Below are positions 28,201 through 57,770 of a DNA stretch of 64,000 bases, one piece after another. The position numbers and the translations under genes were made by a program. Origin of the DNA: a phage; assembly GCA_037574385.1 (NCBI GenBank), contig GCA_037574385.1_4529.1. One strand, 5' to 3'. Each line of letters starts with the position of its first letter. Positions within the stretch are counted from its first letter, which is position 1. The notes beneath the pieces are model-generated. The model had not been told where the DNA came from and searched no databases. It worked only from the letters and a program-made list of their open reading frames with translations.

Positions 28201-29109
28201 ACAGATGGTGCCCGTGATACAGTATTTGAAGCGGGTGACGAAACAGGATACCATTTCTATTCTCAGCGCGCTTCTGATAATAAAGTATCATTTAATATTA
28301 ATGGAACACTTTATTCAACAGGCATTGTTTCTACAAATGGATTAAATGTTACAGGTGTTTCTACCTTTACCGGGCCTATTAGTGCTACAGGCGAAATTGT
28401 TTCTAGTTCTCCTATTGCATTCAGAGCTATTAACGGTAACTATGGTGTTATGCTTTATAATGCTGGTGACAGTTCTTATATTGCATTAACTAACTCAGGT
28501 GACCAGACCGGGACGTTTAATAACTTACGCCCGATCACGATTAACAATGCCACAGGATTAGTTCGTCTTGACAATGGTGTTCAAATCACAAGTGGTGCAA
28601 CAATAACTACCGGTGGGTTAACTGTAAATAACAGAATTATTTCTAACGGCGTTAAAACTGCCACGGTTTATACCGATAAACCAACAGCTTCTACTGTAGG
28701 TTTTTGGTCTATTGACATTAACGATTCTGCTGTATATAGCCAATTCCCTGGATATTGGACGCGTGATAACAAAGGTAACCGTGACCAAGAAATTAAATAT
28801 CCTGGTACTTTGACTCAATTTGGTAATAGCTTAGATTCGCTTTATCAGGATTGGATTTGTTATCCTACTGGTGCAAATGGTGGTAGTATTCGATATACTC
28901 GTACCTGGCAGAAAAATAAAGATGCTTGGACCTCATTTGCAATGGTATTTGATAGTGGCAACCCACCTTCACCTAGCGATGTCGGTGCTATCCCATCCGA
29001 TAATGCTGTGATTGGAAACCTTACTGTTCGAGACTTCTTACAATTAGGAAATGTGAGAATTGTTCCAGACCCGGTTAACAAAACCGTTAAATTTATATGG
29101 GTTGAATAA
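25276..29109 (+). CDS. 34: Long tail fibre proximal subunit gp34
   Basis: 1277 aa; internal tandem about 40-aa repeats (TATETRRG-A-IAT-AQ/E..); first gene of the + strand fibre operon with late promoter TATAAATA upstream. Confidence 0.85.
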   Translation: MVDIKRKFRAEDGLDAGGDKIVNVALADRTVGTDGVNVDFLVQENTVQNYDETRAYTKDFIVLYDNRFYQALNDIPAPAGPFSLAKWKATRTDAEWITVQGGDFQLSVGNSIAVDTSAGTDINFTLPQNPLDGDTVILSDIGGRVGYVKVQITAEAQSIVNFRGQQVRSVLMTHPKSKMVFIFSNRLWQMYVSDYERNAVTVTPAKPYQAQPNDFIIRRFTSAAPINITLPRNANNGDIINLVDLDKLNPLYHTIVKTYDETTSIREAGVHVAEGRNTAEAFFVYDSANSLWRVWEGDQKSRLRIVRNDTDLHPNEEVLVFGTNNDTISTVNLTLPTDILSGDTVKISLNYMRKGQTVKIKAAEGDTIASSISLLQFPKRSEYPPDAQWVSVSELEFNGDTSYVPVLELAYIEDYSSETKYWVVQQNTVTVERVDASSNTTRARLGVIALASQAQANVDLENAPGKELAITPETLANRTATETRRGIARIATTAQVNQNTDFAFQDDLIISPKKLNERTATETRRGVAEVATQAETNAGIDDTTIITPKKLDARQGSEVLSGIVKYTSTTGTTAATIRGNAGTNVYNKAVDNLTISPKALDQYKATPTQQGAVILAIESEVIAGESQAGWANAVVTPETLHKKTSTDGRIGLIEIATQAETNTGIDYTRAVTPKTLNDRKATEGLSGIAEIATQVEFDTGTDDTRISSPLKIKTHFDSSDRTSVNSDSGLIEEGTLWNHYTLDISKANETQRGTLRVATQAESNAGTLDDVLITPKKLLGTKSTETSEGVIKVATQAETVTGTSANTAVSPKNLKWIVQNEPTWAATTAIRGFVKTSSGSITFVGNDTVGSTQPLESYEKNSYAVSPYELNRVLANYLPLKAKAVDSNLLDGLDSLQFIRRDIDQTVNGSLSLTKQTNLSAPLVSTSTASFGSEASVTRRLTLNDSSGSEIVFTKGTQSLSNKENFVVRAWGNSATDGARDTVFEAGDETGYHFYSQRASDNKVSFNINGTLYSTGIVSTNGLNVTGVSTFTGPISATGEIVSSSPIAFRAINGNYGVMLYNAGDSSYIALTNSGDQTGTFNNLRPITINNATGLVRLDNGVQITSGATITTGGLTVNNRIISNGVKTATVYTDKPTASTVGFWSIDINDSAVYSQFPGYWTRDNKGNRDQEIKYPGTLTQFGNSLDSLYQDWICYPTGANGGSIRYTRTWQKNKDAWTSFAMVFDSGNPPSPSDVGAIPSDNAVIGNLTVRDFLQLGNVRIVPDPVNKTVKFIWVE
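26690..27720 (+). repeat. In-frame tandem repeats (about 40 aa / 120 nt unit) inside gene 34
   Basis: Protein motif TATETRRG(I/V)A-(I/V)AT-A(Q/E)-N-(G/T)-D recurs at least six times with ITPKKL-type linkers. Confidence 0.6.
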
Positions 29110-29117
29110 GAGGTTAT

Positions 29118-30242
29118 ATGGAAAAATTTATGGCAAGGTTTGGACAGGGATACGTCCAAACGCCATTTTTATCGGAAAGCAATTCAGTTAGATTTAAACT
29201 AAGTATAGCGGGTTCATGCCCGCTTTCAACAACTAATCCGTATATTTTGTTCCAAAATGAGCCTTTAGGGTTGCAGTCTTTTGGTATTGGACTAAATGTT
29301 AGGGTAATAAATCCGGAAAATGGAACTATAGTTGATAGTAAATTATACAATTTTGCGCCTACAAATAATGCAACTTCAGCTGCATTTATTTCGTTTGTTA
29401 ATACATACGCAGATAATTTCATTTTCGCATTTATTTCTAATAACAAATTTAATTTGCCGCCAGAAATAATTGAATGGTTTAAAGCTGCTGGGAGTTCAGT
29501 TATACCGTCAATTGAAGTTGCTAGTCTTGTTGATATTTCATATTCAGCGTTTTATGTTTCAGGTAAAAATACTATTGCATTAGAACACATAAAATACAGT
29601 AATAAGAAAACAATTTCGGATTACTCAACTCCATTAGATATTGTATATGACTCTATTGCTGATATAGGTGCTACCGGCTATCCTAGACGTACATATGAAG
29701 CTCTAGAAACGTTTTTATCTCCTGTTGGAGGAACTAACAATGAAATAAAAAGGGTGCCTACATCATCCCTTGTTACTCCTATCGCAAACTATGGATTAAA
29801 GCCTACAGATTTTCTTTATTTGAAATTTCAATTAATGGCTGATGAAGCATTACTAGAGGAAGGAACCACAAGACTTTCAATTCGTTTCTTTAAGTCTCCA
29901 TCTAGCTCTCCTATATCGTCTAAAGATATAAACTTTGACGGAACTGCTGGTGAATGGAAGCTATATGAAGAATACGTTGAAATACCAGCTGAAGCCGATG
30001 GCTTTACAGTATATTGTTACCGTACGGCCCCAGTCGGTCAAGGTGGACTAAGAAATGTTATTTTTACTGAAGTATCATGTAACGGAAGTATAGCAAAACC
30101 TGCCGAGTTTGGCCTAAATGGTATTCGTGCTAATTACATCGATGAATCATTAACCGGTAATGATATAATGGACTTGCCTACTCAGTTATCTAACGACACA
30201 GGTAAGGTATTTGGGCAGGAATTTAAAGAGTACACAGAATAA
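29118..30242 (+). CDS. 35: Long tail fibre hinge protein gp35
   Basis: 374 aa; position and size as T4 gp35. Confidence 0.75.
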   Translation: MEKFMARFGQGYVQTPFLSESNSVRFKLSIAGSCPLSTTNPYILFQNEPLGLQSFGIGLNVRVINPENGTIVDSKLYNFAPTNNATSAAFISFVNTYADNFIFAFISNNKFNLPPEIIEWFKAAGSSVIPSIEVASLVDISYSAFYVSGKNTIALEHIKYSNKKTISDYSTPLDIVYDSIADIGATGYPRRTYEALETFLSPVGGTNNEIKRVPTSSLVTPIANYGLKPTDFLYLKFQLMADEALLEEGTTRLSIRFFKSPSSSPISSKDINFDGTAGEWKLYEEYVEIPAEADGFTVYCYRTAPVGQGGLRNVIFTEVSCNGSIAKPAEFGLNGIRANYIDESLTGNDIMDLPTQLSNDTGKVFGQEFKEYTE

Positions 30243-30265
30243 AGGAGGCTTCGGTCTCCTTTTCG
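30243..30265 (+). terminator. Intrinsic terminator-like hairpin after gene 35
   Basis: + strand GGAGGC-UUCG-GUCUCC followed by UUUUCG. Confidence 0.5.
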
Positions 30266-30267
30266 CG

Positions 30268-30275
30268 TATAAATA
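30268..30275 (+). promoter_or_regulatory. Late promoter (TATAAATA) for gene 36
   Basis: Exact TATAAATA about 27 nt upstream of gene 36 ATG, after the gene 35 terminator hairpin. Confidence 0.6.
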
Positions 30276-30301
30276 CTTTAATATTAATAAGGAGACACGA
30301 A

Positions 30302-30958
30302 ATGGCCGATTTAAAAGCCGGAAGTACAGTTGGTGGTTCCGTCATATGGCATCAAGGCAATTTTCCTTTAATGCCAGCTGGCGATGACATCCTATATAAA
30401 ACATTTAAATTATACACTGAATATAACAAGCCAAAAGCGGCTGATAACGATTTCGTATCTAAAGCAAACGGCGGGACATATCTCAAAAAGGTAATCTTTA
30501 ACGAAGGTGTTGCAGTCAAAACAGCTGATGACCAAACGAATGGTATTTTTTCTGGTGGTGGTGACGCCGCGACATTCGACCAAACAAACATGGATATTGT
30601 TTCGTGGTATGGTATTGGGTTTAAATCATCTCAAGGTACCGGTGAAAGAACTGTTGTAATTGATACTCGCACCGGTAATATAAGTTCTAAAGGCGTTATT
30701 GAAGCATCTCAATTCAGAGCCACAACGTTAGCACCTTTAAATAATTACGACCTTACTCGCAAAGATTATGTTGATAGTCAAATAAATACAGTTAATGCTA
30801 ATGCAAACAGTCGTGTACTCCGTTCAGGAGATACGATGACCGGCGCGCTAACAGCCCCAAACTTTTTCTCACAGAATCCTGCATCTCAACCCGCGCATGT
30901 TCCACGATTTGACCAAATTGTTATTAAGGATTCTGTTCAAGATTTCGGCTATTATTAA
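30302..30958 (+). CDS. 36: Long tail fibre distal connector gp36
   Basis: 218 aa; preceded by TATAAATA late promoter and SD AAGGAGA. Confidence 0.75.
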   Translation: MADLKAGSTVGGSVIWHQGNFPLMPAGDDILYKTFKLYTEYNKPKAADNDFVSKANGGTYLKKVIFNEGVAVKTADDQTNGIFSGGGDAATFDQTNMDIVSWYGIGFKSSQGTGERTVVIDTRTGNISSKGVIEASQFRATTLAPLNNYDLTRKDYVDSQINTVNANANSRVLRSGDTMTGALTAPNFFSQNPASQPAHVPRFDQIVIKDSVQDFGYY

Positions 30959-30966
30959 GAGGACTT

Positions 30967-33900
30967 ATGGCTACTTTAAAACAAATACAATTTAAAAGAA
31001 GCAAAACTGCAGGAGCACGTCCTGCCGCTTCAGTATTAGCCGAAGGTGAATTGGCTATAAACTTAAAAGACCGTGTACTTTTTACCAAAGATGACCAAGG
31101 AAATATTATTGATCTAGGTTTTGCTAAAGGCGGTAGTATTGACGGGAATGTTATTCATACAGGCAATTATAACCAAACCGGCGATTATACTTTAAATGGC
31201 GTCTTCACTCAGACTGGTAATTTTAATTTAACTGGTATTGCTCGAGTAACTCGTGATATTATCGCCGCTGGGCAGATTATGACTGAAGGCGGAGAACTTA
31301 TTACAAAAAGTTCAGGTACAGCACATGTTCGTTTTTTCGATAACAATAGCCGCGAACGTGGAATCATTTATGCCCCGGCTAATGATGGTTTAACTACACA
31401 AGTACTTAATATCAGGGTTCAAGACTACGCCGCTGGTGATGAAAGCACCTATGCATTTTCGGGCAGTGGACTATTTACTTCACCTGAAGTATCAGCATGG
31501 AAATCTATTTCGTCTCCACAAATTCTGACCGACAAAGTTATTACAAATGGGAAGAAGACAGGCGATTATGACATCTATTCATTATCAAATAACACTCCAT
31601 TGGCAGAAAGCGAAACGGCTATTAACCACCTCCGTGTTATGCGAAATGCTGTAGGAGCAGGTATTTTCCACGAAGTTAATGTTAATGACGGAATAACCTG
31701 GTATTCCGGAGATGGCTTAGACACTTATCTTTGGTCGTTTACCTGGTCCGGTGGATTGAAAGCCGGTCATTCTATCGCTGTAGGTCTTCCAGGCGGTCCA
31801 AAAGGATATTCTGAATTAGGAACGGCCTCAATTGTTCTTGGTGATAATGATACCGGATTTAAGTGGCATCAGGATGGATATTTCCATACAGTAAACAACG
31901 GAACAAAAACTTTCATTTACGGTCCTGCGGAAACACAAAGCCTTAGAAAAATGGTTATGGGTTATTCTCCAGATGGGCTTCTTATGACAACGCCACCGAC
32001 AGAAAACTATGCTTTGGCCACTGTTGTTACTTACCATGATAATAACGCATACGGCGACGGTCAAACTCTTTTAGGTTATTACCAAGGTGGTAATTATCAT
32101 CATTATTTCCGCGGTAAGGGTACTACAAACATTAATACTCACGGCGGTTTGTTGGTTACTCCTGGTAATATTGACGTTATTGGCGGTTCTGTTAATATAG
32201 ATGGTAGAAATAATTCTTCTACACTAATGTTTAGAGGCAACACAACAGGATACAGCTCGGTTGATAATATGGATATTAAAGTTTGGGGTAATACGTTTGT
32301 TGATCCAAGCGGAGGTACCCGTAAAAACATTATGGAAATTTCTGATGCAACTAGCTGGATGAGCTATATTCAAAGACTTACTACTGGCGAAGTAGAAATG
32401 AACGTTAATGGTTCATTTGAATCATCTGGTGTTACTGCTGGAGATAGAGGAGTTCACACAACAGGTGAAATTTCATCTGGAGCAGTGAATGCTCTTCGTA
32501 TTTGGAACGCAGATTATGGAGCCATTTTTAGACGTTCAGAAGGCAGTCTTCATATTATTCCAACTGCTTATGGTGAAGGTAAACACGGTGATATCGGTCC
32601 ACTTCGCCCGTTTAGTATGGCTTTAGATACTGGTAAAGTTACTATTCCAGATTTACAATCAAGTTACAATACGTTTGCTGCGAATGGCTATATTAAATTT
32701 GTTGGTCATGGAGCAGGCGCTGGTGGTTATGATATTCAATATGTTCAAGCAGCTCCTATTTTCCAGGAAATTGACGATGATGCTATAAACAAATATTATC
32801 CTATTGTTAAACAGAAGTTTTTAAACAGTAAAGCTGTTTGGTCTTTAGGTACTGAAATTAATTCGGGTACATTTGTTTTACACCATATCAAAGAAGATGG
32901 TTCACAAGGCCATACATCAAGATTTAACGCTGACGGTACAGTTAACTTCCCGGATAACGTTCAAGTCGGTGGCGGTGAAGCTACTATTGCTCGCAATGGT
33001 AATATCTGGTCTGATATCTGGAAAACGTTTACTTCTGCCGGTGATACTACAAATATTCGCGATGCTATTGCGACTCGTGTTTCGAAAGAAGGCGACACGA
33101 TGACCGGCAAATTGACTTTATCTGCAGGTAACGATGCCCTTGTTTTAACTGCAGGTGCTGGTGCTTCATCACATATCCGTAGTGATGTAGGTGGTACAGG
33201 TAATTGGTATATAGGCAAAGGCGGTGCCGACAATGGTCTAGGTTTTTACAGTTACATTACACAAGGCGGTGTATACATAACAAATACCGGTGAAATATCG
33301 CTTTCTCCTCAAGGACAAGGAACATTTAATTTTAATAGAGACCGCCTTTATATAAATGCTAGTCAATGGGTTGCACATAAATCTGGCGCTTGGGGCGACC
33401 AATGGGGCTTAGAAGCTCCTGTATTTGTGGATTTTGGCTACGTCGGTAATGATAGTTATTATCCTATTATCAAAGGAAAATCAGTTATTACTAATGAAGG
33501 ATTTGTATCAGGCGTTGATTTTGGTATGCGCCGTACCCCTAATATGTGGGCACAAGGTATTATCCGTGTAGGCAACCAGGAAAACGGTTCAGACCCACAA
33601 GCCATCTATGAATTCCACAGTAACGGTACTTTTTATGCCCCTAGCCTACTTAAGAGCAATAGAGTATCAGCAGGTGGCGGTGACCCCGTATGGGCCGGGC
33701 CATGTATTGTTCTTGGCGATAATGACACAGGTCTAGTTTGGGAAGCAGATGGTATTTTCAACGCATACGCAAACGGACAAGGCGTGTTTAGTTTTAGAGC
33801 TGGTCTCGCACAAACATTTGGTAACGTATCTTTAAACGTTAACGCAGGTATGTATGTTCGTGATAACATTGATGTTAACGACGTTTATATCCGTTCTGAT

Positions 33901-34215
33901 ATTCGCTGTAAGTCAGAAATTAAGCTTATTAAGAACGCTCAAGAGAAATCTAAACTCTTAGGCGGCTATACTTATCTGCTTAAAAACTCTGTTACAGACG
34001 AAGTTAAACCATCTGCAGGTTTAATTGCTCAGGAAGTTCAAGAAGTATTGCCTGAACTTGTTTCTGAAGATAAAGAGACCGGACTGCTTCGTTTGAACTA
34101 TAACGGTATTATTGGTTTAAATACTGCCACTATCAACGAGCATACTGACGAAATCAAGGAATTGAAATCTGAAATTGCTGAGTTGAAAGCATTAATTAAA
34201 TCATTGATAAAATAA
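30967..34215 (+). CDS. 37: Long tail fibre distal subunit gp37 with C-terminal intramolecular chaperone domain
   Basis: 1082 aa; C-terminus carries the SD-R-K auto-cleaving chaperone-type motif (SDIRCKSEIK ... GLIAQEVQEVLPELV ... coiled-coil tail). Confidence 0.8.
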   Translation: MATLKQIQFKRSKTAGARPAASVLAEGELAINLKDRVLFTKDDQGNIIDLGFAKGGSIDGNVIHTGNYNQTGDYTLNGVFTQTGNFNLTGIARVTRDIIAAGQIMTEGGELITKSSGTAHVRFFDNNSRERGIIYAPANDGLTTQVLNIRVQDYAAGDESTYAFSGSGLFTSPEVSAWKSISSPQILTDKVITNGKKTGDYDIYSLSNNTPLAESETAINHLRVMRNAVGAGIFHEVNVNDGITWYSGDGLDTYLWSFTWSGGLKAGHSIAVGLPGGPKGYSELGTASIVLGDNDTGFKWHQDGYFHTVNNGTKTFIYGPAETQSLRKMVMGYSPDGLLMTTPPTENYALATVVTYHDNNAYGDGQTLLGYYQGGNYHHYFRGKGTTNINTHGGLLVTPGNIDVIGGSVNIDGRNNSSTLMFRGNTTGYSSVDNMDIKVWGNTFVDPSGGTRKNIMEISDATSWMSYIQRLTTGEVEMNVNGSFESSGVTAGDRGVHTTGEISSGAVNALRIWNADYGAIFRRSEGSLHIIPTAYGEGKHGDIGPLRPFSMALDTGKVTIPDLQSSYNTFAANGYIKFVGHGAGAGGYDIQYVQAAPIFQEIDDDAINKYYPIVKQKFLNSKAVWSLGTEINSGTFVLHHIKEDGSQGHTSRFNADGTVNFPDNVQVGGGEATIARNGNIWSDIWKTFTSAGDTTNIRDAIATRVSKEGDTMTGKLTLSAGNDALVLTAGAGASSHIRSDVGGTGNWYIGKGGADNGLGFYSYITQGGVYITNTGEISLSPQGQGTFNFNRDRLYINASQWVAHKSGAWGDQWGLEAPVFVDFGYVGNDSYYPIIKGKSVITNEGFVSGVDFGMRRTPNMWAQGIIRVGNQENGSDPQAIYEFHSNGTFYAPSLLKSNRVSAGGGDPVWAGPCIVLGDNDTGLVWEADGIFNAYANGQGVFSFRAGLAQTFGNVSLNVNAGMYVRDNIDVNDVYIRSDIRCKSEIKLIKNAQEKSKLLGGYTYLLKNSVTDEVKPSAGLIAQEVQEVLPELVSEDKETGLLRLNYNGIIGLNTATINEHTDEIKELKSEIAELKALIKSLIK

Positions 34216-34220
34216 TAAAA

Positions 34221-34240
34221 GGGCCTTCGGGCCCTGGAGG
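34221..34240 (+). terminator. UUCG-tetraloop hairpin after gene 37
   Basis: + strand GGGCC-UUCG-GGCCC, followed by SD GGAGG of gene 38. Confidence 0.5.
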
Positions 34241-34245
34241 TTTTT

Positions 34246-35025
34246 ATGGCAGTAGTAGGAATACCTGGTTGGATTGGAACATCAGCAGTGGCTGAAACAG
34301 GTCAACGTTGGATGTCAGCAGCTTCTAGAGAATTACGTCTAGGGAACCCATCTTGGATGTCACAATTCGCTGGACGTTCAAGAGAAATTATTCACACTCT
34401 TGGAGCAGACCATAACTTTAATGGTCAATGGTTCCGTGACCGCTGTTTTGAAGCCGGTGGCGCTCCTATAGTGTTTAATATCACAGGCAACTTAGTATCA
34501 TATTCTAAAGACGTTCCTTTATTCTTCATGTATGGTGATACTCCTAACGAATATGTTACTTTGAATATTCATGGTGGTGTTCATATGTGGGGCCGAGGTG
34601 GTAATGGTAGCGTAAATGGAAGCCCAGGCACTAATGGCGGCGACGTAATCCAAAATGATATTGGTGGACGACTTCGCATTTGGAACTATGGCGTTATTGC
34701 ATCAGGTGGCGGTGGCGGGGGTGCAGTGTCGTTAAAGAATAGCTGGGATGCGTATGCTACAGCTGGTGGTGGCGGTGGCAGGCCATTTGGTCTTGGCGGC
34801 GGCGGTGTTAATTGGCCTGGTGGCAATGCTAGTTATGACGGTCCAGGTGGTGGCGGTAATACAAGTCAATTTGGTGGCGGCAATGGCGGTGATGCTGGGG
34901 GTGCTGGTGGTGACGGATGGGGCAGTCACTTATCTAGATCTGGGGGTGGTGCTCCTGGTAGAGCAGTATTCGGAAGTTCACCTTCATGGGGTGCTACAGG
35001 CACAATCTACGGCTCCTGGATTTAA
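34246..35025 (+). CDS. 38: Tail fibre tip adhesin gp38 (T2-type, glycine-rich motifs)
   Basis: 259 aa; multiple poly-Gly blocks (GGGGGG, GGGGG, GGGG) separating short variable segments, as in T2-family gp38 adhesins. Confidence 0.75.
34660..34960 (+). repeat. Glycine-codon-rich low-complexity segments in gene 38 (GGTGGCGG-type repeats)
   Basis: Poly-Gly runs encoded by repeated GGT/GGC; this also explains the spurious overlapping ORFs on both strands here. Confidence 0.6.
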
Positions 35026-35044
35026 ACGATAATACCTCTCAATT

Positions 35045-35052
35045 ATAAATAT
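35045..35052 (+). promoter_or_regulatory. Late promoter (TATAAATA) for holin t
   Basis: Exact TATAAATA immediately upstream of SD GGGAGG and the t start codon. Confidence 0.6.
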
Positions 35053-35058
35053 TGATAA

Positions 35059-35730
35059 ATGGGAGGTAATATGGCAGCACCAAAAGTATCATTTTCGCCT
35101 AGTGATATTTTATTTGGGTTGCTAGACCGCATTTTCAAAGATAACGCCTCTGGAAATATTCTTATTTCCAGAGTTGCTGTTGTAGTTCTTTTGTTCCTAA
35201 TGGCACTAATATGGTACAAAGGGAGTATTTTTATGGATTATTACGTGAGGTCGAAATATGATACTTACACAGAAGTAATTCAAAAAGAAAGAAATACACG
35301 ATTTGAATCTGCGGCTTTAGAACAACTACAAATAGTCCACGTCACATCAAGGGCGGATTTTAGTTCGGTGTATTCTTTCAGACCTAAAAATCTAAATTAT
35401 TTCGTCGACCTTATTGCGTATGAAGGTAAGTTACCTAGCACAGTAACTGAAAAATCTATGGGAGGATTTCCTGTCGATAAAACTACAGCAGAATATTCGG
35501 TCCATTTAAGTGGACTTCACTTTACTTCTAAAACAGATTTTGCTTTCTTACCTACCAAATCAAAAACTCCGGAACTGGCATATATGTATAGTTGTCCTTA
35601 CTTCAATTTGGATAACATATATGCTGGAACTGTTTCTATGTATTGGTATAAGGGGTCGGATGTGTTAAATGAAGAACGCTTGGCAGCAATATGCAACCAA
35701 GCAGCAAGGATATTAGGGCGGGCTAAATAA
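35059..35730 (+). CDS. t: Holin T
   Basis: 223 aa; close match to T4 T holin (SFSPSDILFG.LDR.FKDNA.G, YMYSCPYFNLDNIYAGT, AARILGRAK). Confidence 0.9.
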   Translation: MGGNMAAPKVSFSPSDILFGLLDRIFKDNASGNILISRVAVVVLLFLMALIWYKGSIFMDYYVRSKYDTYTEVIQKERNTRFESAALEQLQIVHVTSRADFSSVYSFRPKNLNYFVDLIAYEGKLPSTVTEKSMGGFPVDKTTAEYSVHLSGLHFTSKTDFAFLPTKSKTPELAYMYSCPYFNLDNIYAGTVSMYWYKGSDVLNEERLAAICNQAARILGRAK

Positions 35731-38686: not shown

Positions 38687-40012
38687 TCAAAGTGCCTCCA
38701 AGTCTTTAGTGTACTCTGTCACAACATCGGTAGACTTCCAATACTCATTTTCTTCTTTCTTAGCTTTAGCTTCTTCTGCTAGTTTACGTGCTTCATCGGA
38801 AGTGATATGGAAGATGTTAAGACCTACCAGTTTATCAACATGTTCTTTATACATTTCGATTTGTGCTAGCTCTTCAGTCAAAGCTTTACGAGTCTTGCCC
38901 TGAATCACAATTTCACCACTGATAACTTTTTTGATGAAGTGTGCCTTAGCAAAAGCAAGTTTAAATGCTTTTTCAGATTCAAGGATTTTGTTGTCAATAC
39001 GTTTCTGAACGTAAGTCTTACGGACTTCAACAAAATCTTTGATTAAGTCTACTACATTATCGTAGACCGCTAATTTACCTTTTTCATTAATCACTGTGAT
39101 GTTTTGTGAACGACGTTCGATGAGACTAAAATCTTTCATGATTTTTTCATGACGTAGCTCTTCATCGTCTGGAAGCGAGTACTCTTTACGGAACTTCACC
39201 TTAAACCCAAATCCATGTTCACCACAATCATCTTCCCATGAGATTAGACCTTTATCTTCTAATGGGTCAAGAACCTTACTCACATACGTTTCACGGTCGA
39301 ATTTATATGGGATTTCAGTTATCTGCATTTGAGTACGAGATGTGAACTTATATGTTCCGTGAATCTCATAACGCCCATCAACTTCATGTACTTCACCACG
39401 GAATTCCGGGAATTCAACTTTTGGCTTAGTGACATTTTTACCTTGAAGAGCTTGTAATACAGCCTTTTTGACTGATTTAAAACTATGAGGCAGAATATTT
39501 GTTGCATAACCGGTTGCAATACCGGAGACACCATTCAAAAGAACTGTCGGAATAATAGGAAGATAGAATTTTGGTGGAATATGTTCTTTATCTTCATGAG
39601 TTGGAGCATATTCGGTATCTTTATAGACATTATAGAAATTTTTGCTTACACGAGCAAAAATATAACGAGATGCCGCAGCTTTTTGGACTGTTCTAGAACC
39701 AAAGTTGCCTTGGCCATCTAACAGTGGATAGTTGTTGTTCCATGTGTTAGCCATTAATGCACCTGCATCTTGTGCAGAAGATTCACCATGGTGATAACCT
39801 AAATCTGCAACACCACCCGCAATTGACGCAAGTTTATGAAATTTTTCTTTATTACCACGAGCCAAATCTAACGCACGATGGACCACAAAACGTTGAACCG
39901 GCTTAAATCCATCAATCATGTTTGGGATTGCACGGTTTTCAACGGTGTACATCGCATATGCTAAGGCTTCGTTATCAATAATACTTTTTAGATTACGAGA
40001 ATTCAATTGCAT
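38687..40012 (-). CDS. 52: DNA topoisomerase II medium subunit gp52 (GyrA-like)
   Basis: 441 aa (T4 gp52 442 aa); GyrA-like N-terminal region; position next to motA. Confidence 0.8.
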   Translation of the reverse strand: MQLNSRNLKSIIDNEALAYAMYTVENRAIPNMIDGFKPVQRFVVHRALDLARGNKEKFHKLASIAGGVADLGYHHGESSAQDAGALMANTWNNNYPLLDGQGNFGSRTVQKAAASRYIFARVSKNFYNVYKDTEYAPTHEDKEHIPPKFYLPIIPTVLLNGVSGIATGYATNILPHSFKSVKKAVLQALQGKNVTKPKVEFPEFRGEVHEVDGRYEIHGTYKFTSRTQMQITEIPYKFDRETYVSKVLDPLEDKGLISWEDDCGEHGFGFKVKFRKEYSLPDDEELRHEKIMKDFSLIERRSQNITVINEKGKLAVYDNVVDLIKDFVEVRKTYVQKRIDNKILESEKAFKLAFAKAHFIKKVISGEIVIQGKTRKALTEELAQIEMYKEHVDKLVGLNIFHITSDEARKLAEEAKAKKEENEYWKSTDVVTEYTKDLEAL

Positions 40013-43427: not shown

Positions 43428-45641
43428 TTATTTGGCCGCTTCCACGGCCTTCATGAATTTAACGATTTGAGCGACTTGTTCTTTAGAAAGAGTACCACGT
43501 CGTCCCATGTATTCTGACACAATATGATAATTGGTTTCGAATTCAATAACCATTTTATCATCATTATCGTAAGCATTATCTTTAAGCTTATCGAAAATTT
43601 TAGCACACAATTCTAACTTTTTATTCAGTTCTCTGTTAGTAGCACCTGAGAATCGATTCCATCCCCAACGATTATTTACCGTTGAGAGTTTTGCAAAATC
43701 TTTACTGATTTCTTTGTTTTTAGAGCTAAAATACTTACTAAGGAAGTTAAGCTCTTCGTTACGAGTAATATGATTCAAATAAGGCTGTGCTCTACGACTT
43801 GGTGATACATACTCATCATAATCCACTTTATCAATTAGCGTAATATAGTCATTAATTGATTTTTCGAACAAGCATTCTACTTCGCCAAGTTTACGAACTT
43901 TCTTAGCAATCTGTGGACGAACTACAGTGAACTCTTTAATACCTGACAAATCAGCAATACGGGTCAAGAAATTGGAGTCATAGTTCAACCAACCTTTATC
44001 TGCGTCAAGACATTCAGCATTAGAACGATTACGAACTATAGCATAACCTTGGATTTCATCTGCTTCACTTGCTGGAATAAAGAGGTCTTCTGATACCCAA
44101 ACATCGTTTTCATTCTTAAAGAATCGATGAGCACTTGGCGATTTAGGACGAGGCTCATTAGTCCGTTTCCTGACTTCAATCCATGGCTTAACGATTTGTA
44201 AAAGCTCTGAAGTCTTGTACATGTTAATGTTGTCGCCGTCAAAGATAACTTTAAGGCGTTCCAGAAGTTTCATTGCATCTTCGTCTGTAGGGTCAACGAA
44301 TAGTACGCTTTTACCAAAACCGCGTGGAACTTTACCGGTTAATTTAACCTCGTCTTTAGACATTTCAATTGAATTAAGAGCTCGCATTAATGGAACGCGT
44401 CCCTTAACGTCGTCAATAACAATTTCAACGTTTTTAATGTTAATGCCAATCAGGCTGTTAATTGAAATAGTTGATGATGAGCTACCACTTTCACGAATAC
44501 GACGAAGACGAGGGGATTCAACGATATCGTATACGACGCCAAGATTACACCACTCAGGCCCCATTTTAAAACGTTTATACAACTCAGAATAAGTTAGTTG
44601 TTCTTTAGAGTATTTCAGTGATTCAATATTAGACCCAGCCTTTTCCATGTATTTACGAGCGGTATAGCCAAGAGAATCAATTTCACGGAACACATGACGT
44701 GGGTATTTACAATCAATCCATTTCTTAGAATCTTCAGCGAACAATTTAGCATCGATTTCTGCAACGCGTTTATGGATATTTGCTACTGTACGTTTATCAA
44801 ACGACAATGCTTCACGAGACGGAGCTACATCTAGTTCACCCATAGGGAATTTAATATAAGCTGTAGTGCATCGTGTCATCATCCATGTTTGTTCTTTAAT
44901 AACACTTCCGATTGGATAAACAATACCACCATAAACAGCCATGATATTACCACGTTCACCCCGTGGAGCTTCCTTGGCCAAATATACATCGTCAAATTCT
45001 GGGAAGTATTTAATATCTTTAACACCACGAACTTCTGCTATATCACCTAAAGGACGCATAACATATGCAATTTCAGATGCGAACTTTTCAAAATCTTCTG
45101 GGTTAACCGGTACGACTACTTCTACACCCGTACGGTCATCAGGACCCATCTTATCTACAAAGGTTGGCTTAATTTGAGGACCCGTGTCATCTTGGTAGAT
45201 TACGTAACCACGAACTTCACCGTTGTGATAAGACGTAAGGTTAAACGTATCGGTATATGCTAGCGGAGCTTTAGAGCCGAGCCCGAATCCACCAATGAAA
45301 TCGTTGCTCGATGTTTTAGTTGAAGCAAAATATGAGTTATAGATTCCTGGCTCTTCGTCATTACCTCGAATAGTGAAATCACTCATACCAGGACCAAAGT
45401 CTCGAACTACAAAACGTGGGTCTAAACGACCTGGAGCCTGAACAATAAACTTATCAGTGCAACCGTTAAGAATTTGTCCATCAATACAGTTTGTGATTAA
45501 TTCACGTACACAAGCCAATTCTTTGTTTGTATAAAGGTCATTAGACAAAATCTTATAAACTTTGCTATTGCCTTGAATAGTGAATGCTGTACTCTTACCG
45601 CCTGAACCAATAATCGTTTCTTTAGCCGTTTCAATAATCAT
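43428..45641 (-). CDS. rIIA: rIIA protein (GHKL ATPase-like)
   Basis: 737 aa (T4 rIIA 725 aa); adjacent to rIIB. Confidence 0.85.
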   Translation of the reverse strand: MIIETAKETIIGSGGKSTAFTIQGNSKVYKILSNDLYTNKELACVRELITNCIDGQILNGCTDKFIVQAPGRLDPRFVVRDFGPGMSDFTIRGNDEEPGIYNSYFASTKTSSNDFIGGFGLGSKAPLAYTDTFNLTSYHNGEVRGYVIYQDDTGPQIKPTFVDKMGPDDRTGVEVVVPVNPEDFEKFASEIAYVMRPLGDIAEVRGVKDIKYFPEFDDVYLAKEAPRGERGNIMAVYGGIVYPIGSVIKEQTWMMTRCTTAYIKFPMGELDVAPSREALSFDKRTVANIHKRVAEIDAKLFAEDSKKWIDCKYPRHVFREIDSLGYTARKYMEKAGSNIESLKYSKEQLTYSELYKRFKMGPEWCNLGVVYDIVESPRLRRIRESGSSSSTISINSLIGINIKNVEIVIDDVKGRVPLMRALNSIEMSKDEVKLTGKVPRGFGKSVLFVDPTDEDAMKLLERLKVIFDGDNINMYKTSELLQIVKPWIEVRKRTNEPRPKSPSAHRFFKNENDVWVSEDLFIPASEADEIQGYAIVRNRSNAECLDADKGWLNYDSNFLTRIADLSGIKEFTVVRPQIAKKVRKLGEVECLFEKSINDYITLIDKVDYDEYVSPSRRAQPYLNHITRNEELNFLSKYFSSKNKEISKDFAKLSTVNNRWGWNRFSGATNRELNKKLELCAKIFDKLKDNAYDNDDKMVIEFETNYHIVSEYMGRRGTLSKEQVAQIVKFMKAVEAAK

Positions 45642-45653
45642 ATTTTTCTCTCA

Positions 45654-45854
45654 TCACAAGTTACGTTTAAAAATTTCTGCTACTTCAAGAAGTTCTTCTT
45701 TAGTAGCTGTATCGGTTTGTATTTTATATCGAATTTCTTTAAAGCGTTCTTTAAAGGACTCTGCTGACTCGATATCAAAAAATCTTTGGATAAGCCGGAA
45801 TTCCCGGAGCACTGCTTTATCAAAAAGTTCCAAGTCCACGTTATATGTTCTCAT
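45654..45854 (-). CDS. Hypothetical protein (rIIA.1 position)
   Basis: 66-aa ORF immediately upstream of rIIA. Confidence 0.5.
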   Translation of the reverse strand: MRTYNVDLELFDKAVLREFRLIQRFFDIESAESFKERFKEIRYKIQTDTATKEELLEVAEIFKRNL

Positions 45855-45879
45855 AATATTCTCTTCAGTAGATTCCTAG

Positions 45880-45930
45880 GGCACTATTACTAAAGACCAT
45901 ATAATCTATCATCTTATGTGTAATAGTGCC
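45880..45930 (-). other. 11-bp perfect inverted repeat (GGCACTATTAC / GTAATAGTGCC) separated by about 29 nt
   Basis: Lies between the glycosyltransferase stop and the rIIA.1 start; loop contains a TATAAT-like element. Confidence 0.45.
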
Positions 45931-45946
45931 TCAGGCGATTCAGGAT

Positions 45947-47047
45947 TTACGCTGTGAAGATTTTATCCCACATTGCAACAACTGCATCTCGGTTATACTT
46001 CTTCCATACTGCTTCAGCACGTTTAACTCGAGCTTCGTATGTGTCAGTGAATTCTAATACAGCTTTTGTGTAAAGCGCAACTACTTCTTTCTTAGGAGTA
46101 GAGGAATCAATTTCTACACGCACAGTATCTGGGTCATATTCGAATGTCGCATGCGGATAATCCTTAAAAACTAACTGAATTACAGGGACACCTTTAGAAA
46201 TGGCTTCAATAGAACTATTCTCTACCGTACCTGTGTCAGGACACGTATTAATAAGTGCTTTAGCTGTTTTAAGACGTTCCATAATTTCACTGTGTGGAGC
46301 ATCAATAATAACAGGATACTTAGCCGGTGGTGCCCATTTACTAGGACAGTATCCTGCGCCATTTTCGCCTAGTGCTTTAATCGCTTCAAGAGCAACATCA
46401 GTACGACGCATTTTAGTGTCATAACGTTGTGCACTAATAATCAGATCAGTCGCCGGAAGAACTTCAGGTTTCTCATTCAAACAAATAACCGGATAATCTT
46501 CGGCTTCAAACAACGGATTTGCTCGCCAATAATCATAATCAATTTTGTCAGTCAGACCTGAAGTCATATAACAATATTTGCGTTCAAATTCACGGAAGGC
46601 TTTAGTAGGAGCATAACTCTTACCACCGTTCTTATGAATTTGAATAGTCTGGTCCCAAATTTGAACAATGCCACGAGATACCGGCTCAAACGGTGTTGCC
46701 ATAAAATTCTTATGAACTTTAGAGAGACCTGCGTCTTTAATTGCCTGAACGGTTAGTTTAGTCGGTTCCATTGTAACAACGAAATCGTACTCATTAATGC
46801 CGGCTAGTTCAACAATCTTACGAGCCATAGTATAACTCATACCTAGACTGAATTTAGTCAGATGACCAACAGGATGATGATTAACCTTCCAATCACCAAA
46901 CGTGTCATTATCAAAGCCGATATAATCAATATCAGCACCGATGGACACAAGATATTTCAACACATTTAAATGTACTGCTTCAAGACCACCTTGTACACGT
47001 TCTGGGTTAAACGGGACTGCGCGAGATGGGATAAACATAACTTTCAT
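45947..47047 (-). CDS. GT-B fold glycosyltransferase (GT4-like); candidate DNA hypermodification enzyme
   Basis: 366 aa; N-terminal MKVMFIPSRAVPFNPERVQGGLE and C-terminal TCPDTGTVENSSIEAISKGVPVI resemble GT4 donor-binding motifs; sits where T4 carries gene 60/mobA. Confidence 0.6.
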   Translation of the reverse strand: MKVMFIPSRAVPFNPERVQGGLEAVHLNVLKYLVSIGADIDYIGFDNDTFGDWKVNHHPVGHLTKFSLGMSYTMARKIVELAGINEYDFVVTMEPTKLTVQAIKDAGLSKVHKNFMATPFEPVSRGIVQIWDQTIQIHKNGGKSYAPTKAFREFERKYCYMTSGLTDKIDYDYWRANPLFEAEDYPVICLNEKPEVLPATDLIISAQRYDTKMRRTDVALEAIKALGENGAGYCPSKWAPPAKYPVIIDAPHSEIMERLKTAKALINTCPDTGTVENSSIEAISKGVPVIQLVFKDYPHATFEYDPDTVRVEIDSSTPKKEVVALYTKAVLEFTDTYEARVKRAEAVWKKYNRDAVVAMWDKIFTA

Positions 47048-47074
47048 AATTAAGCCTTATTAAAATTAAAATGA

Positions 47075-47090
47075 AGCTCCCGAAGGAGCT
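47075..47090 (-). terminator. UUCG-tetraloop hairpin after gene 39
   Basis: AGCUCC-UUCG-GGAGCU overlapping the gp39 stop. Confidence 0.5.
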
Positions 47091-48907
47091 TAGGACATCC
47101 ATTCTTTACGAAGTTCTGAATCATCACCCAACAACATTTCAAAGAGTTCTTTCCAATTTTCAGGAAGTTTAACTACGTCGTACACAGGGTTTTGAATCAT
47201 TTCACGATATTCTGACTTTTCAAGGGAGCCCAATCCCTTGATGTATCGAATACTATGCTTAGGCAGTGTATCTTTAGCTTCTTCATACTCAGCTACAGTA
47301 TAAAACCATTTTTGAGTTTTGCCGATTTGTGCAATAATTACAGGTGTTTTAACAAAGCGAATACGTCCTTGTTCAAACAATTCAGGCCAATTACTAAAGA
47401 AAGCAAGCAAAGCCGGATAGATACTTCCAAGACCGTCATGATCGGCATCGGTCATAATTGCAATATTACGATAGTTCGTATTCTCTGCCTTTTCACCAAG
47501 AATAAGACCTGTGATAGCACAGATATCAAAGAGCTCTTTGTTCTTCATCATATCGGCATATGACATACCCCAGCTATTCATCACCTTACCACGTAATGGG
47601 AATCCGCCGTGTAGTTCACGGTCACGAACATCAATGAGATATCCAATTGCCGAATCACCTTCTGTTAAAAACAATGTCGTATCTGCATCTTTACCGCATT
47701 GGTTAGCTTTAATATGCTTATGAACCTTAGCTTTAGTTGCCTTTTTAGCTGCTTTAGTTTCTGCAGCCTTTTCTGCTGCCAATTTACGAGCTAATGCTGC
47801 TTCAACAATAGGCATAATCAAGGCTTCGTTTTTAAGAAGTGCCTGAGCAATTTTCTTAGCATCTAATTGGATATGATTACGAATATCACCATACGTTGAC
47901 GTTAAACGTTCTTTAGTCTGAGAATCAAAACGCATGTTGCTCATGTCTCTAATAAACATCAACATTGTGAGACATTCTTTAACACGAGCTTTAGTGACTT
48001 CAATACCCTTATATTTCTTTTTAATACCCGGCAAAAGATGTTCGCAAATATCATCCATTACACATTCAACATGATGACCACCATTTTTAGTATGGATGTT
48101 ATTCACATAAGTTAAATGACGGAAGCCATCCGGTGATGTTGTGAATGCTATAGAGACTTTATCATTTTCTTGAATGATGTTATCTTCACCAAATTGTTTA
48201 GCAAATCGTTTAAAATTGCCATCAACCTTTTTACCATTAAATGTGAACTTGATATCAGGATAAACGACTGCCAATGTTTGAAGTCGGTCTAAAGTAATAT
48301 CTAAATAAATTTGAGATAAATTATGCTCTTCAAATGAAGTGAAATCAGGAGTGAAGATTACTTTAGTGCCTTTACCTTTAGATTTCTTAGAAGACCATGA
48401 TTTGTTTTCCATTCCGTTTGAACAGTTAACAGTGATTTCATTTTCGCCATCTGACGTGATGCCTGTAAACAACGTAGAGAAGATATTAGTTAAACTACTC
48501 CCGACGCCGTTCATACCACCTGTCTTGCGTTCAGAGTCGTCACCAAAGTTACCACCGGCCTTTGGAATAGTCCAGGCTGCTACAGGCCCAGGAATTTGTT
48601 CACCCGTTTGGTCGGTAACTAAACCTTGAGGAATACCACGTCCGTTATCTTCCACTGAAACTTGATTATTTTTAATTTGCACATCAATTTTATTTGCAAA
48701 CTTAAATGATGTACGAATAGCTTCATCAACCGAGTTGTCAATAATCTCATCGATTAATTTAACCAGACCAGGAACATATTCAACTTGTTGATATTTACCA
48801 AACAAAAAACGCTCATGTGCTTCTTTAGCTGAAGAACCAATATACATACCACTACGTTTCTTAATATGTTCTACATCTGACAGTACCTTAATTTCATTTT
48901 TAATCAT
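47090..48907 (-). CDS. 39: DNA topoisomerase II large subunit, fused gp39+gp60 (GyrB-like)
   Basis: 605 aa in one ORF; GHKL ATPase N-terminus (DNSVDEA, GRGIP) plus Toprim region; T4 splits this into 39 (516 aa) and 60 with a translational bypass. Confidence 0.85.
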   Translation of the reverse strand: MIKNEIKVLSDVEHIKKRSGMYIGSSAKEAHERFLFGKYQQVEYVPGLVKLIDEIIDNSVDEAIRTSFKFANKIDVQIKNNQVSVEDNGRGIPQGLVTDQTGEQIPGPVAAWTIPKAGGNFGDDSERKTGGMNGVGSSLTNIFSTLFTGITSDGENEITVNCSNGMENKSWSSKKSKGKGTKVIFTPDFTSFEEHNLSQIYLDITLDRLQTLAVVYPDIKFTFNGKKVDGNFKRFAKQFGEDNIIQENDKVSIAFTTSPDGFRHLTYVNNIHTKNGGHHVECVMDDICEHLLPGIKKKYKGIEVTKARVKECLTMLMFIRDMSNMRFDSQTKERLTSTYGDIRNHIQLDAKKIAQALLKNEALIMPIVEAALARKLAAEKAAETKAAKKATKAKVHKHIKANQCGKDADTTLFLTEGDSAIGYLIDVRDRELHGGFPLRGKVMNSWGMSYADMMKNKELFDICAITGLILGEKAENTNYRNIAIMTDADHDGLGSIYPALLAFFSNWPELFEQGRIRFVKTPVIIAQIGKTQKWFYTVAEYEEAKDTLPKHSIRYIKGLGSLEKSEYREMIQNPVYDVVKLPENWKELFEMLLGDDSELRKEWMS

Positions 48908-48956
48908 GTTGTCTCCTCGTTATGAAGGTATTCTATCATCCGAAATCTAAAGCAAA

Positions 48957-48972
48957 AAGGGCCGAAGCCCTT
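48957..48972 (-). terminator. UUCG-tetraloop hairpin
   Basis: AAGGGC-UUCG-GCCCUU. Confidence 0.45.
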
Positions 48973-49396
48973 ATTTAAATTTAATTTTCTGAAGTGCATC
49001 AATTGCAGCCAAACGCCCTTGTTCACTTTTAACTGTAATGACCACATCGCCTGATACGATCACCGAACCATCAACAAATTCTATAGAGTCTTTTTTGAAA
49101 TCGACAGCTGTATCTGGTTCCGGAACTTCTTCAAAGAATTTAAATTCTGCACCATAAATCAGAATATCACCTTGCATACTATGAATAGTTCGGCCATAAT
49201 CGCCTACGGCTTCTACAGCAATCATTGAAACACCGTAACCAATCATCTCTTCCACAATAAAATCTTTAGACAATAAAGTAGTATGCAGATTAGTATTAAG
49301 ACGTTTACCAGTCGTATTAAGAATTCTCAAGAAATTATCTTCCTGTCCTTTGATAATACGGTATTTCTTGCCAATTTCAAAACCTTTAAAAGCCAT
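48971..49396 (-). CDS. Hypothetical protein
   Basis: 141-aa ORF. Confidence 0.5.
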   Translation of the reverse strand: MAFKGFEIGKKYRIIKGQEDNFLRILNTTGKRLNTNLHTTLLSKDFIVEEMIGYGVSMIAVEAVGDYGRTIHSMQGDILIYGAEFKFFEEVPEPDTAVDFKKDSIEFVDGSVIVSGDVVITVKSEQGRLAAIDALQKIKFK

Positions 49397-49401
49397 AATT
49401 A

Positions 49402-49578
49402 TCCCTTCTTAAGTAAGTCGTAAAAACCACCGTTCACATGTTTAGGAGCAGAAACCCGACGAGTAGACAGACGATGACATTCAGGGCAAACATCGTTTTC
49501 TCGTTCAGAAATCCTTTTAATTTTTTCATATTCATGACCACAATCTTCAGATTGACATTTATAGTCGTATAACGGCAT
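49402..49578 (-). CDS. FmdB-family zinc-ribbon protein (58 aa)
   Basis: Hand-called: MPLYDYKCQSEDCGHEYEKIKRISERENDVCPECHRLSTRRVSAPKHVNGGFYDLLKKG; CxxxC...CxxC pattern; SD AGGAAT upstream. Confidence 0.55.
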
Positions 49579-49580: not shown

Positions 49581-50009
49581 TTATTCCTTAAAATGTGTTT
49601 TCAACATTTGATACAAAGACCATGCCTGGTCGTTATTTTCGATAGTAATCGTCATCACCGGAAATTCGGTCAATTCATCAAGTTCTTCAGAGTCTTGCTC
49701 TTCAGACGCTTGATATGGATTTCCAACTTCATCAAAAAACTCTGCTTCACTAGTAGAGAGCCAGATAAAGTTTTCATCAAGAATATCACCACCAGTTGCG
49801 TATCCAACCATGCCAGTAGATGTCACAATTTTAGTAGGTCGACCAAGATGGTCAACATCTAATACTTTAAATGGTTCCATGCCAAGACGTCGTGCATAAA
49901 TCCCATTATCAGTGTGGTTTTTAATAAACTCTTCTTGGACACGTTTATCTTTAAATTGGTACCATGAGTTAACGCGGAATTTATTAGCCATTAGTAAGTT
50001 TCCTTCCAA
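49581..50009 (-). CDS. Hypothetical protein
   Basis: 142-aa ORF. Confidence 0.5.
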
Positions 50010-50859: not shown

Positions 50860-51279
50860 TTATGCGAAAGCAGCCGGGCTATATTTTTTAATTTGGAATT
50901 CAGGAACTACCATGAACTGACCAGCGAAAACGATGTTATAAAGCTTAACACCATCTTCTACCCAACGGTCGCTAATAAATCCGGCGATTTGCTTAGTTTT
51001 CCATGGCGTTCCATCGGTTGCCGCAGCAATAGTGAATTCGTGGTCTTTTTCAACAGAAACTGATCTGCATAGTCCCCATTTGAACGCTTTTTCTTCTGGT
51101 TCAATGAATTGGCTTGAGACGTAGCCAATGTTGCCATCAGCATCACGAACTTTAACTTGATGTGGACTAAAGAGTCCACAACTTACAGAAAGAACTTCAA
51201 CCAACTTCCCAGCAACTTTAGAGCGAGAAGCAACAGATACATATACGTAATCACCAATAGAGAGATTTGCAATATTCAT
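50860..51279 (-). CDS. Hypothetical protein, paralog family member 1
   Basis: 139 aa; shares N-terminal SRSKVAGKLVEV and C-terminal GFISDRWVEDGVKLYNIVFAGQFMVVPE with the next two genes. Confidence 0.55.
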   Translation of the reverse strand: MNIANLSIGDYVYVSVASRSKVAGKLVEVLSVSCGLFSPHQVKVRDADGNIGYVSSQFIEPEEKAFKWGLCRSVSVEKDHEFTIAAATDGTPWKTKQIAGFISDRWVEDGVKLYNIVFAGQFMVVPEFQIKKYSPAAFA

Positions 51280-51288
51280 AATAATTCC

Positions 51289-51774
51289 TTAAGCTTTACG
51301 AGGAGACACATAACGAGTGATTTCGGATTCTTTAACAACTCTGAAGTCACCTAAGAATACGATATTGTATAACTTTTCACCATCTTCAACCCATTGGTCA
51401 CTAATGAAGCCACACATAGTATCAGTTTTGCTTGGATAACCGTATTCATCGATGAAGTCAAATTCTTTATCAGTCTGGAATTCAACGCCTTTGCAAAGGG
51501 CCCATTTGAACTGTACATTATGCTCTGTGGATTCAACTTTTTCTCTTGAAGCAAAAGCACTACTCACAGGCGTTTCCAAGAACTTTGCACGAACATAAGC
51601 AAATTTGGTTTCCTGTGTCCCAAAACTAGGAATAATACGAACCTTTACCTCAGAATCTTCATCTTTAACGCCTTCTTTAAGTTGAATACTTACAACTTCG
51701 ACCAATTTTCCTGCGGCTTTAGAACGAGATTTGTTAGATACGCGAACGATTTCACCAATAATACCAAGATTCAT
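51289..51774 (-). CDS. Hypothetical protein, paralog family member 2
   Basis: Tracked ORF 51289..51837 over-extended; probable start MNLGIIGE at about 51774; shares SRSKAAGKLVEV and GFISDQWVEDGEKLYNIVFLGDFRVVKE. Confidence 0.5.
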   Translation of the reverse strand: MNLGIIGEIVRVSNKSRSKAAGKLVEVVSIQLKEGVKDEDSEVKVRIIPSFGTQETKFAYVRAKFLETPVSSAFASREKVESTEHNVQFKWALCKGVEFQTDKEFDFIDEYGYPSKTDTMCGFISDQWVEDGEKLYNIVFLGDFRVVKESEITRYVSPRKA

Positions 51775-51836
51775 AATTTCTCTCTCTTTGTTTAAATTGA
51801 ATTCATTATACTCCATCCATCCTTGGATGTACAACA

Positions 51837-52331
51837 TTAATTAAGGATATTAACCACAGCACTACGTGGAACTACACTAAAATCACCTGCATGAACAACG
51901 TTCAGAAGTTCAACACCGTCTTCAATCCACTGGTCAGTTACCCATCCATTTACTGGACCTGCGAAAGGACGTCGAATTGAAACATATTTACACAGCAAAT
52001 CAGTAGGCTCAATAGGCTTAATCAGAGTACCGTACATACAAGCGATATCCATATCAATACAGATGTCTTTAACGGGTTCTACTTCTTCAATCAACAGTTC
52101 AAAGTCTGTGCTTGGAAGGGCGGTAGTGGAAATTGTACCATATGAATTTTTAATTTCTAAGAATAACCAAGGGCCTTCAGCTTGTTTGATGAAGTTAACA
52201 ATAGTGAAACTATTGCCTTGAGTGGCACCTAAAATTTCACAAAACTTTTCGTAAGCTCGCACTGAAGCACTGTACCAGTTGATTTGTTTTTCGTCTTTCA
52301 GGATGTAAGTAGCCGTAGTATTGATATTCAT
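51837..52331 (-). CDS. Hypothetical protein, paralog family member 3 (divergent)
   Basis: 164 aa; C-terminal GWVTDQWIEDGVELLNVVHAGDFSVVPR aligns with members 1 and 2. Confidence 0.5.
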   Translation of the reverse strand: MNINTTATYILKDEKQINWYSASVRAYEKFCEILGATQGNSFTIVNFIKQAEGPWLFLEIKNSYGTISTTALPSTDFELLIEEVEPVKDICIDMDIACMYGTLIKPIEPTDLLCKYVSIRRPFAGPVNGWVTDQWIEDGVELLNVVHAGDFSVVPRSAVVNILN

Positions 52332-57477: not shown

Positions 57478-57770
57478 TCAGAATAACTTGACCCAGAATC
57501 ACCAGGCCAAGACGATACGTATGAATGATTATAACTTGAAGAGCTTGAAGCATTAACCTGTTTTGTTTTTGGACGAATAACTTCTTCCATCATTCCGTCA
57601 CCGATATATTCCCAACTTTTTTCGTGTGTATCAGGAATAGGCATCATACCTTCGCCTGGTTTAACAGCAAATAACTTCTTCAGTATCGTAAGCATTAATT
57701 GTTCCTCGAACAAAACGAACACCACCATCATCCCAACGGATTTCGGCATTAAATTTGACGTCTTCACCAT
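57447..57770 (-). CDS. Hypothetical Ser-rich protein
   Basis: Tracked 107-aa ORF overlaps 57661..57888; likely starts at an internal Met (about 57647). C-terminus is Ser-rich (SSSSSYNHSYVSSWPGDSGSSYSDCGSSSGSCE). Confidence 0.35.
   Translation of the reverse strand: MVKTSNLMPKSVGMMVVFVLFEEQLMLTILKKLFAVKPGEGMMPIPDTHEKSWEYIGDGMMEEVIRPKTKQVNASSSSSYNHSYVSSWPGDSGSSYSDCGSSSGSCE

Follow-up and report, generated by a model that had tools for sequence, protein, structure and literature searches.

An uninterrupted gene 39 for the large subunit of DNA topoisomerase II, lacking the mobA and gene 60 bypass cassette, in an RB69-type Mosigvirus

The 64,000-nucleotide stretch of phage DNA analysed here (contig GCA_037574385.1_4529.1, hereafter the window) carries on its minus strand a gene 39 in one piece, framed by two short, G+C-rich UUCG-tetraloop hairpins and preceded by a promoter-like motif (Table 1). 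Both the ORF list and a scan of the frame give 605 codons from an ATG start with zero in-frame stops, and the single uninterrupted 605-aa ORF described by the initial annotation agrees exactly with the ORF list. The genes around it follow the order of the RB69 reference, which is rIIA, rIIA.1, ORF003c, 39, ORF005c, 39.2 (FmdB-like) and goF. A similarity search with the 3.9-kb region around the gene 39 ORF retrieved 146 phage records at 95-99% DNA identity; coverage of this query reaches 80% or more in 151 records. The closest match is Escherichia phage FP43 (98.3%), the top matches also including APCEc01, Shf125875 and Mosigvirus mar005P1, and most of the matches listed annotate the ORF as DNA topoisomerase (II) large subunit. 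Judging from its approximately 98% DNA identity to annotated genomes that have the same gene order, the window is from a T4-like phage, an RB69-type Mosigvirus. The 141-aa ORF located upstream of gene 39 weakly resembles the C-terminal end of goF (PHROG 13003, E 5.7e-6). Since the goF homolog itself is found two genes further on, this ORF may be a diverged goF paralog.

Table 1. Features at and around gene 39, with positions in the window.
Feature	Position	Strand	Basis and remarks
Gene 52, GyrA-like DNA-cleavage subunit, gp39 partner, 441 aa	38687..40012	-	Pfam DNA_topoisoIV, E 4.5e-78
rIIA	43428-45641		PHROG 612
rIIA.1	45654-45854		Pfam T4_RIIA1
366-aa GT-B/GT4-like glycosyltransferase, homolog of RB69 ORF003c (gp3)	45947..47047	-	RB69 comparison, PDB, PHROG 8302
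Downstream UUCG-tetraloop hairpin AAGCTCCTTCGGGAGCTT	47091-47074	-	includes the final two bases of the gene 39 TAA; followed by CATTTTAATTTT
Unsplit gene 39 ('60plus39' type), 605-aa large ATPase/Toprim subunit of phage type IIA DNA topoisomerase	47090..48907	-	ORF list, Pfam, PHROG, PDB
Uninvaded MobA target segment, codon A474 to G492	47432..47488	-	alignments; matches the insertion coordinates in bioRxiv 10.1101/2022.08.31.505936
Toprim metal-binding motif DADHDG, aa 487-492	47449-47432	-	motif scan
Toprim metal-binding motif EGDSA, aa 416-420	47662-47648	-	motif scan
Transducer-domain QTK loop, aa 330-332	47912..47920	-	motif scan; inside Pfam DNA_gyraseB (aa 249-385)
GHKL motif GGMNGVG, aa 130-136	48520-48500	-	motif scan
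GHKL motif DNGRGIP, aa 87-93	48649-48629	-	motif scan
GHKL N-box EIIDNSVDE, aa 54-62	48748-48722	-	motif scan
Gene 39 Shine-Dalgarno GAGGAG	48918-48913	-	before the ATG at 48907
Middle-promoter-like motif: MotA-box TGCTTTA, 12-nt spacer, TAGAAT -10	48954-48930	-	pattern scan
Upstream UUCG-tetraloop hairpin AAGGGCTTCGGCCCTT	48972-48957	-	directly after the stop of the 141-aa ORF; followed by U-tract TTTTGCTTT
141-aa ORF upstream of gene 39, RB69 ORF005c type	48971-49396	-	PHROG 622
Zinc-ribbon 39.2 homolog	49399-49578		Pfam and PHROG searches
goF homolog	49581-50009	-	RB69 gene order, PHROG

The product of gene 39 falls in PHROG 543, 'DNA topoisomerase II large subunit' (E 7.7e-287), and contains the Pfam domains HATPase_c (aa 47-190, E 3e-11), DNA_gyraseB (E 2.7e-14) and TOPRIM_C. 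The best matches among solved structures, found by searching PDB sequences, are T6 Topo II (8ylu, a full-length match with E 0) and the T4 gp39-gp60 fusion (8yo3); the chains of bacterial GyrB and ParE are far weaker (E 1e-37 to 1e-48). The protein has the features of a B-type subunit of a type IIA enzyme, namely a GHKL ATPase domain, a transducer domain with its QTK loop and a Toprim domain with the E...DxD residues. In the alignment, E416, D487 and D489 of the window protein are the equivalents of E415, D486 and D488 of T6, which constitute the metal site of T6 Topo II (PMC11461880). The two Toprim motifs thus lie on one chain here, whereas they are distributed over two polypeptides (gp39 and gp60) in T4. 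Furthermore, the same genome encodes, according to Pfam, the GyrA-like cleavage subunit gp52.

The hairpins that the initial annotation had reported on both sides of the ORF were both found, and both are identical in RB69. The downstream hairpin folds at -11.1 kcal/mol (z -2.6) and the upstream one at -9.4 kcal/mol (z -1.5). Both are real, each being only modestly better than shuffled sequence, and the 4.2-kb region as a whole has 8 terminator-like sites, compared with 2.4 +/- 1.5 in shuffles. The hairpins belong to no known RNA family, since an Rfam scan of 45500-49500 (E <= 1) returned one match only, a chance snoRNA at 18 bits for a gathering score of 44 bits. The upstream hairpin is shared with T4, which possesses a homologous one (AAAGGCCTTCGGGCCTTT) at the same place before gene 39. 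As matches to the terminator consensus, these hairpins, which the initial annotation called terminators, could act as such; the U-tract of the downstream one is weak (CAUUUUAAUUUU), and this hairpin may instead stabilise transcripts or terminate transcription only in part.

The promoter-like motif begins at the end of the U-tract of the upstream hairpin, where the MotA-box is located, and its -10 element lies further downstream. T4 has the related arrangement AGCTTTA-12 nt-TATAAT at the same place upstream of its gene 39. From its match to the MotA-box/-10 consensus of T4 middle promoters, 48930-48954 is a candidate middle promoter. For the more general pattern TGCTTNA-N11-13-TANNNT, the window has 12 matches where 3.5 +/- 1.8 are expected, and 0 of 100 shuffles reach 12. 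Copies are found for instance at 8420-8444, 20625-20648, 24331-24355, 27491-27516 and 57528-57552, in addition to the one before gene 39, and most of them lie on the minus strand, in the same orientation as the early and middle genes.

Two other parts of the window deserve a mention in their own right. Three tandem ORFs on the minus strand (50860-52331; 139, 182 and 164 aa) have a common C-terminal motif in their translations (GFISDRWVEDGVKLYNIVFAGQFMVVPE, GFISDQWVEDGEKLYNIVFLGDFRVVKE and GWVTDQWIEDGVELLNVVHAGDFSVVPR) and appear to constitute a small paralogous family; the RB69 record calls their counterparts MotB-like. On the plus strand, a block of large ORFs (25276-35730; 1277, 374, 218, 1082, 259 and 223 aa) lies where the GC skew reverses; this block, surrounded by early genes of the minus strand, probably corresponds to the long tail fibre gene cluster.

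Comparison with T4 defines precisely which parts of the protein are shared. Residues 1-474 are 79% identical to T4 gp39 1-473 and residues 473-605 are 87% identical to T4 gp60 27-159 (E 2e-88), the gp60 query being made of its two exons joined over the annotated 50-nt gap (T4 2803-2852). No counterpart of T4 gp39 474-516 or of gp60 1-26 was found in the window protein by alignment. The lack of similarity to gp60 that would have refuted the initial reading is thus not seen. The proposal that the C-terminal 160 aa resemble gp60 holds as regards the similarity itself but not as regards its length: only 133 of the 160 residues of gp60 have a counterpart, because the first 26 residues of gp60, like the last 43 of gp39, are encoded by the T4 insertion. 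The alignment with T2 gp39 that had been suggested as a further check extends from end to end over its 605 aa, at 82% identity and with a single one-residue gap. More generally, gp39 of T2, T6 and RB14, phages that belong to a different genus (Tequatrovirus), is like the window protein an unsplit 605-aa chain, collinear over its full length and with all catalytic motifs kept. The window protein differs from these three by one extra Gly at position 301 and by the absence of the terminal Gln.

Within Mosigvirus, RB69 gp39 (RB69p004, NC_004928) and the products of APCEc01, Shf125875, FP43 and others correspond to the same gene, with the same length (605/606 aa) and the same neighbours. The RB69 protein is 96% identical to that of the window, and the reference sequence departs from it almost only at aa 14-47. 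In the corresponding DNA (RB69 NC_004928 5323-5483, window 48750-48907), indels of +2 and +1 nt shift and then restore the frame, which leads to 606 aa; here the window has the conserved IKKRSGMYIGSS motif in common with T2 and T4. The discrepancy looks like a sequencing error in the 2003-era RB69 record.

At the position where T4 carries its insertion, nothing interrupts the gene of the window. In T4, 1108 nt are inserted within the Toprim domain; they lengthen gp39 by 43 aa and gp60 by 26 aa and bring a mobA pseudogene, 60.1 and a 50-nt coding gap after Gly46 (GGA). In the target segment of the window, A474 is the last residue shared with T4 gp39 and G492 is the equivalent of the T4 gp60 Gly46 take-off codon. 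The codons at the bypass position are contiguous (ATG ACC GAT GCC GAT CAT GAC GGT CTT GGA AGT), whereas T4 reads GAT CAC GAT GGA, then the 50-nt gap, then TTA GGT TCT; neither a stop codon, nor a 50-nt gap, nor a GGA take-off codon occurs at 47432-47488. The DNA alignment is collinear at the MobA site and, in a six-way protein alignment, the sequences of the window, RB69, T2 and RB14 run without gaps over the junction (aa 440-520). The gene is thus a single ORF collinear with that of T2, with a gp60-like C-terminus and no insertion-derived residues at the MobA site.

The rest of the window gives the same picture. A search of the whole window with the 1108-nt insertion of T4 (blastn, word size 7) produced a single match of 45 nt (75.6%, 47477-47433), which is the parental sequence corresponding to the insert-borne HomR copy. 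T4 60.1, the mobA fragment, the C-terminal extension of gp39 (CTE) and the N-terminal extension of gp60 (NTE) have no significant tblastn match in the 64 kb, and the sequence of the T4 coding gap has no match in the window either. Likewise, the window contains no split Topo2L ORF, no gap of about 50 nt with matched GGA take-off and landing codons, stop and take-off stem-loop, and no HNH homing endonuclease MobA or remnant of one. The absence of both the bypass and mobA, which the initial annotation had deduced from the continuity of the ORF, is thus borne out at the DNA and protein levels.

The neighbouring gene does encode a glycosyltransferase, as had been proposed. Its 366-aa product gave no match in Pfam and was identified through a PDB sequence search and comparison with RB69: it is 99% identical to RB69p003 (ORF003c) and nearly identical to PDB 9iqz/9ir0, a solved fold named 'glycosyltransferase subfamily 4-like' (E 2.6e-248). 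ORF003c of RB69 is put forward as an arabinosyltransferase in PMC6024577, and PMC13326640 (2026) lists RB69 gp3 as putative beta-arabinosyltransferase 2 and reinterprets RB69 DNA as carrying arabinosylated 5-hydroxycytosine. By homology, the 366-aa protein is a putative DNA arabinosyltransferase that would act by transfer to modified cytosine. The remaining part of the arabinosylation pathway (RB69 gp45-55) should fall beyond the end of the window.

The idea that this gene occupies the neighbouring slot instead of mobA does not stand. The position of mobA is inside the topoisomerase frame, whereas the glycosyltransferase gene lies outside it, past the gene 39 stop and between 39 and rIIA.1, at a place occupied in T4 and T2 by a spacer of only 54 nt. 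Moreover, in T2 and RB14 rIIA.1 directly follows gene 39, without the glycosyltransferase gene that the window has. Since these two phages lack both mobA and the glycosyltransferase gene, the presence of one is independent of that of the other. The 92-nt spacer that separates the glycosyltransferase gene from rIIA.1 (45855-45946, minus strand) forms a long stem-loop with an 11-bp perfect stem (GGCACTATTAC/GTAATAGTGCC) and outer pairs (-28.5 kcal/mol, z -4.2; none of 200 shuffles reached this stability). In RB69 the stem-loop sequence is the same except for one A.C mismatch in the stem; the Rfam scan gave no match to it, and T4 and T2 have no equivalent. This structure may indicate where the glycosyltransferase insertion ends or may be a processing or stability element.

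Can the continuity of the gene be explained otherwise than by the lack of any invasion? The single ORF could be secondary, a MobA cassette having once split the gene and having then been precisely excised ('hit and run'). Such re-fusion after MobA has been described for a clade of Aeromonas phages (bioRxiv 10.1101/2022.08.31.505936). However, re-fused genes retain extra residues derived from the CTE or the NTE, and no extra residue is seen in the window, which is gap-free with respect to T2 and RB14 across aa 440-520 and has no tblastn match to either peptide. This scenario is therefore very improbable.

Even less credit can be given to the two remaining explanations. As the Pfam domains of the protein are common to GyrB and ParE, the ORF might be thought to be a captured bacterial gyrB or parE rather than an orthologue of gene 39. 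Capture from a host is refuted by the 82-96% identity to gp39 of T2 and RB69, by the conserved order rIIA - rIIA.1 - (glycosyltransferase) - 39 - 39.2 - goF and by the much weaker matches to bacterial chains, and its probability is negligible. An artefactual continuity, in which the assembly would have joined a gene that is split in the real phage, is equally implausible, and is excluded by the 146 independent records matching at 95-99%; among the matches listed, every one with a relevant annotation has a single topoisomerase gene.

The unsplit form is in fact the usual one. When the whole 39-mobA-60 segment of T4 was compared with the phage collection and the insertion was considered present at a query coverage of at least 80%, it was found in 42 of the 528 phage records that match the segment. 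Records sampled at even intervals along the ranking typically cover 61% of the query, in two pieces that span exactly 1818 nt (605 codons plus the stop); some of the unsplit records of this sample bear the annotation '60plus39'. The unsplit 1818-nt gene is thus the majority form, even within Tequatrovirus, and the split gene of T4 is the exception.

These data agree with what has been published. A single ancestral gene was divided when a mobile MobA element of about 1.1 kb entered it at aa 466-473, with its other end just past D490/G491, and this element independently invaded several clades, each of which has close relatives that are free of it (bioRxiv 10.1101/2022.08.31.505936). The same survey, which cites Bonocora et al. 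2011, lists six clades as invaded, RB69 not being mentioned, and indicates that the bypass gap shields the invaded genome from MobA (bioRxiv 10.1101/2022.08.31.505936). The Topo II of T2 and T6 is a gp39/gp52 heterotetramer, whereas the T4 enzyme is the only one of type IIA to consist of three subunits; about 70 inserted aa interrupt its Toprim domain and leave activity unaffected (PMC11461880). Solved structures are available for the two-subunit Topo II of T-even phages (PDB 8YLU for T6, 8YO1 and 9IMJ), and the notes of the GenBank records of T4 and RB69 already describe the unsplit gene 39 as opposed to the T4 split. Hence, the unsplit gene 39 of T2, T6, RB69 and most T4 relatives and the MobA-borne split of T4 are already established.

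Taken together, these observations indicate that 47090-48907 is almost certainly the ancestral, uninterrupted gene 39 of an RB69-type Mosigvirus, never invaded by MobA and encoding one of the two subunits of a gp39/gp52 type IIA topoisomerase. Its product is a GyrB/ParE-like chain in which a GHKL ATPase and a transducer domain are followed by an entire Toprim domain and a C-terminal tail. By homology with T6, it would pair with the GyrA-like gp52 encoded at 38687-40012 as a gp39(2)gp52(2) heterotetramer. From the 82% identity to T2 gp39 and the top PDB match to the T6 enzyme, which has been characterised biochemically, such an enzyme is predicted to use ATP to drive the passage of one duplex through a transient double-strand break in another and would in this way relax supercoils during phage replication. 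In T4, the MobA cassette splits the gene within the Toprim domain and carries the 50-nt coding gap with it. Translational bypass would not be needed in the phage of the window because the MobA homing-endonuclease cassette was, on this evidence, never inserted.

A more speculative view of 47432-47488, to which we give little credence, is that of a naive MobA homing site: RB69-type phages may have escaped the cassette because DNA with arabinosylated cytosine, and the barrier to recombination with T4-type phages that it would create, prevent nicking or homing by MobA. If this were true, the glycosyltransferase would be linked functionally, and not positionally, to the absence of the cassette in RB69-type phages. 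The window itself can be viewed as one more copy of the Mosigvirus gene 39, useful for the correct annotation of this gene and to illustrate a MobA target site that has not been invaded.
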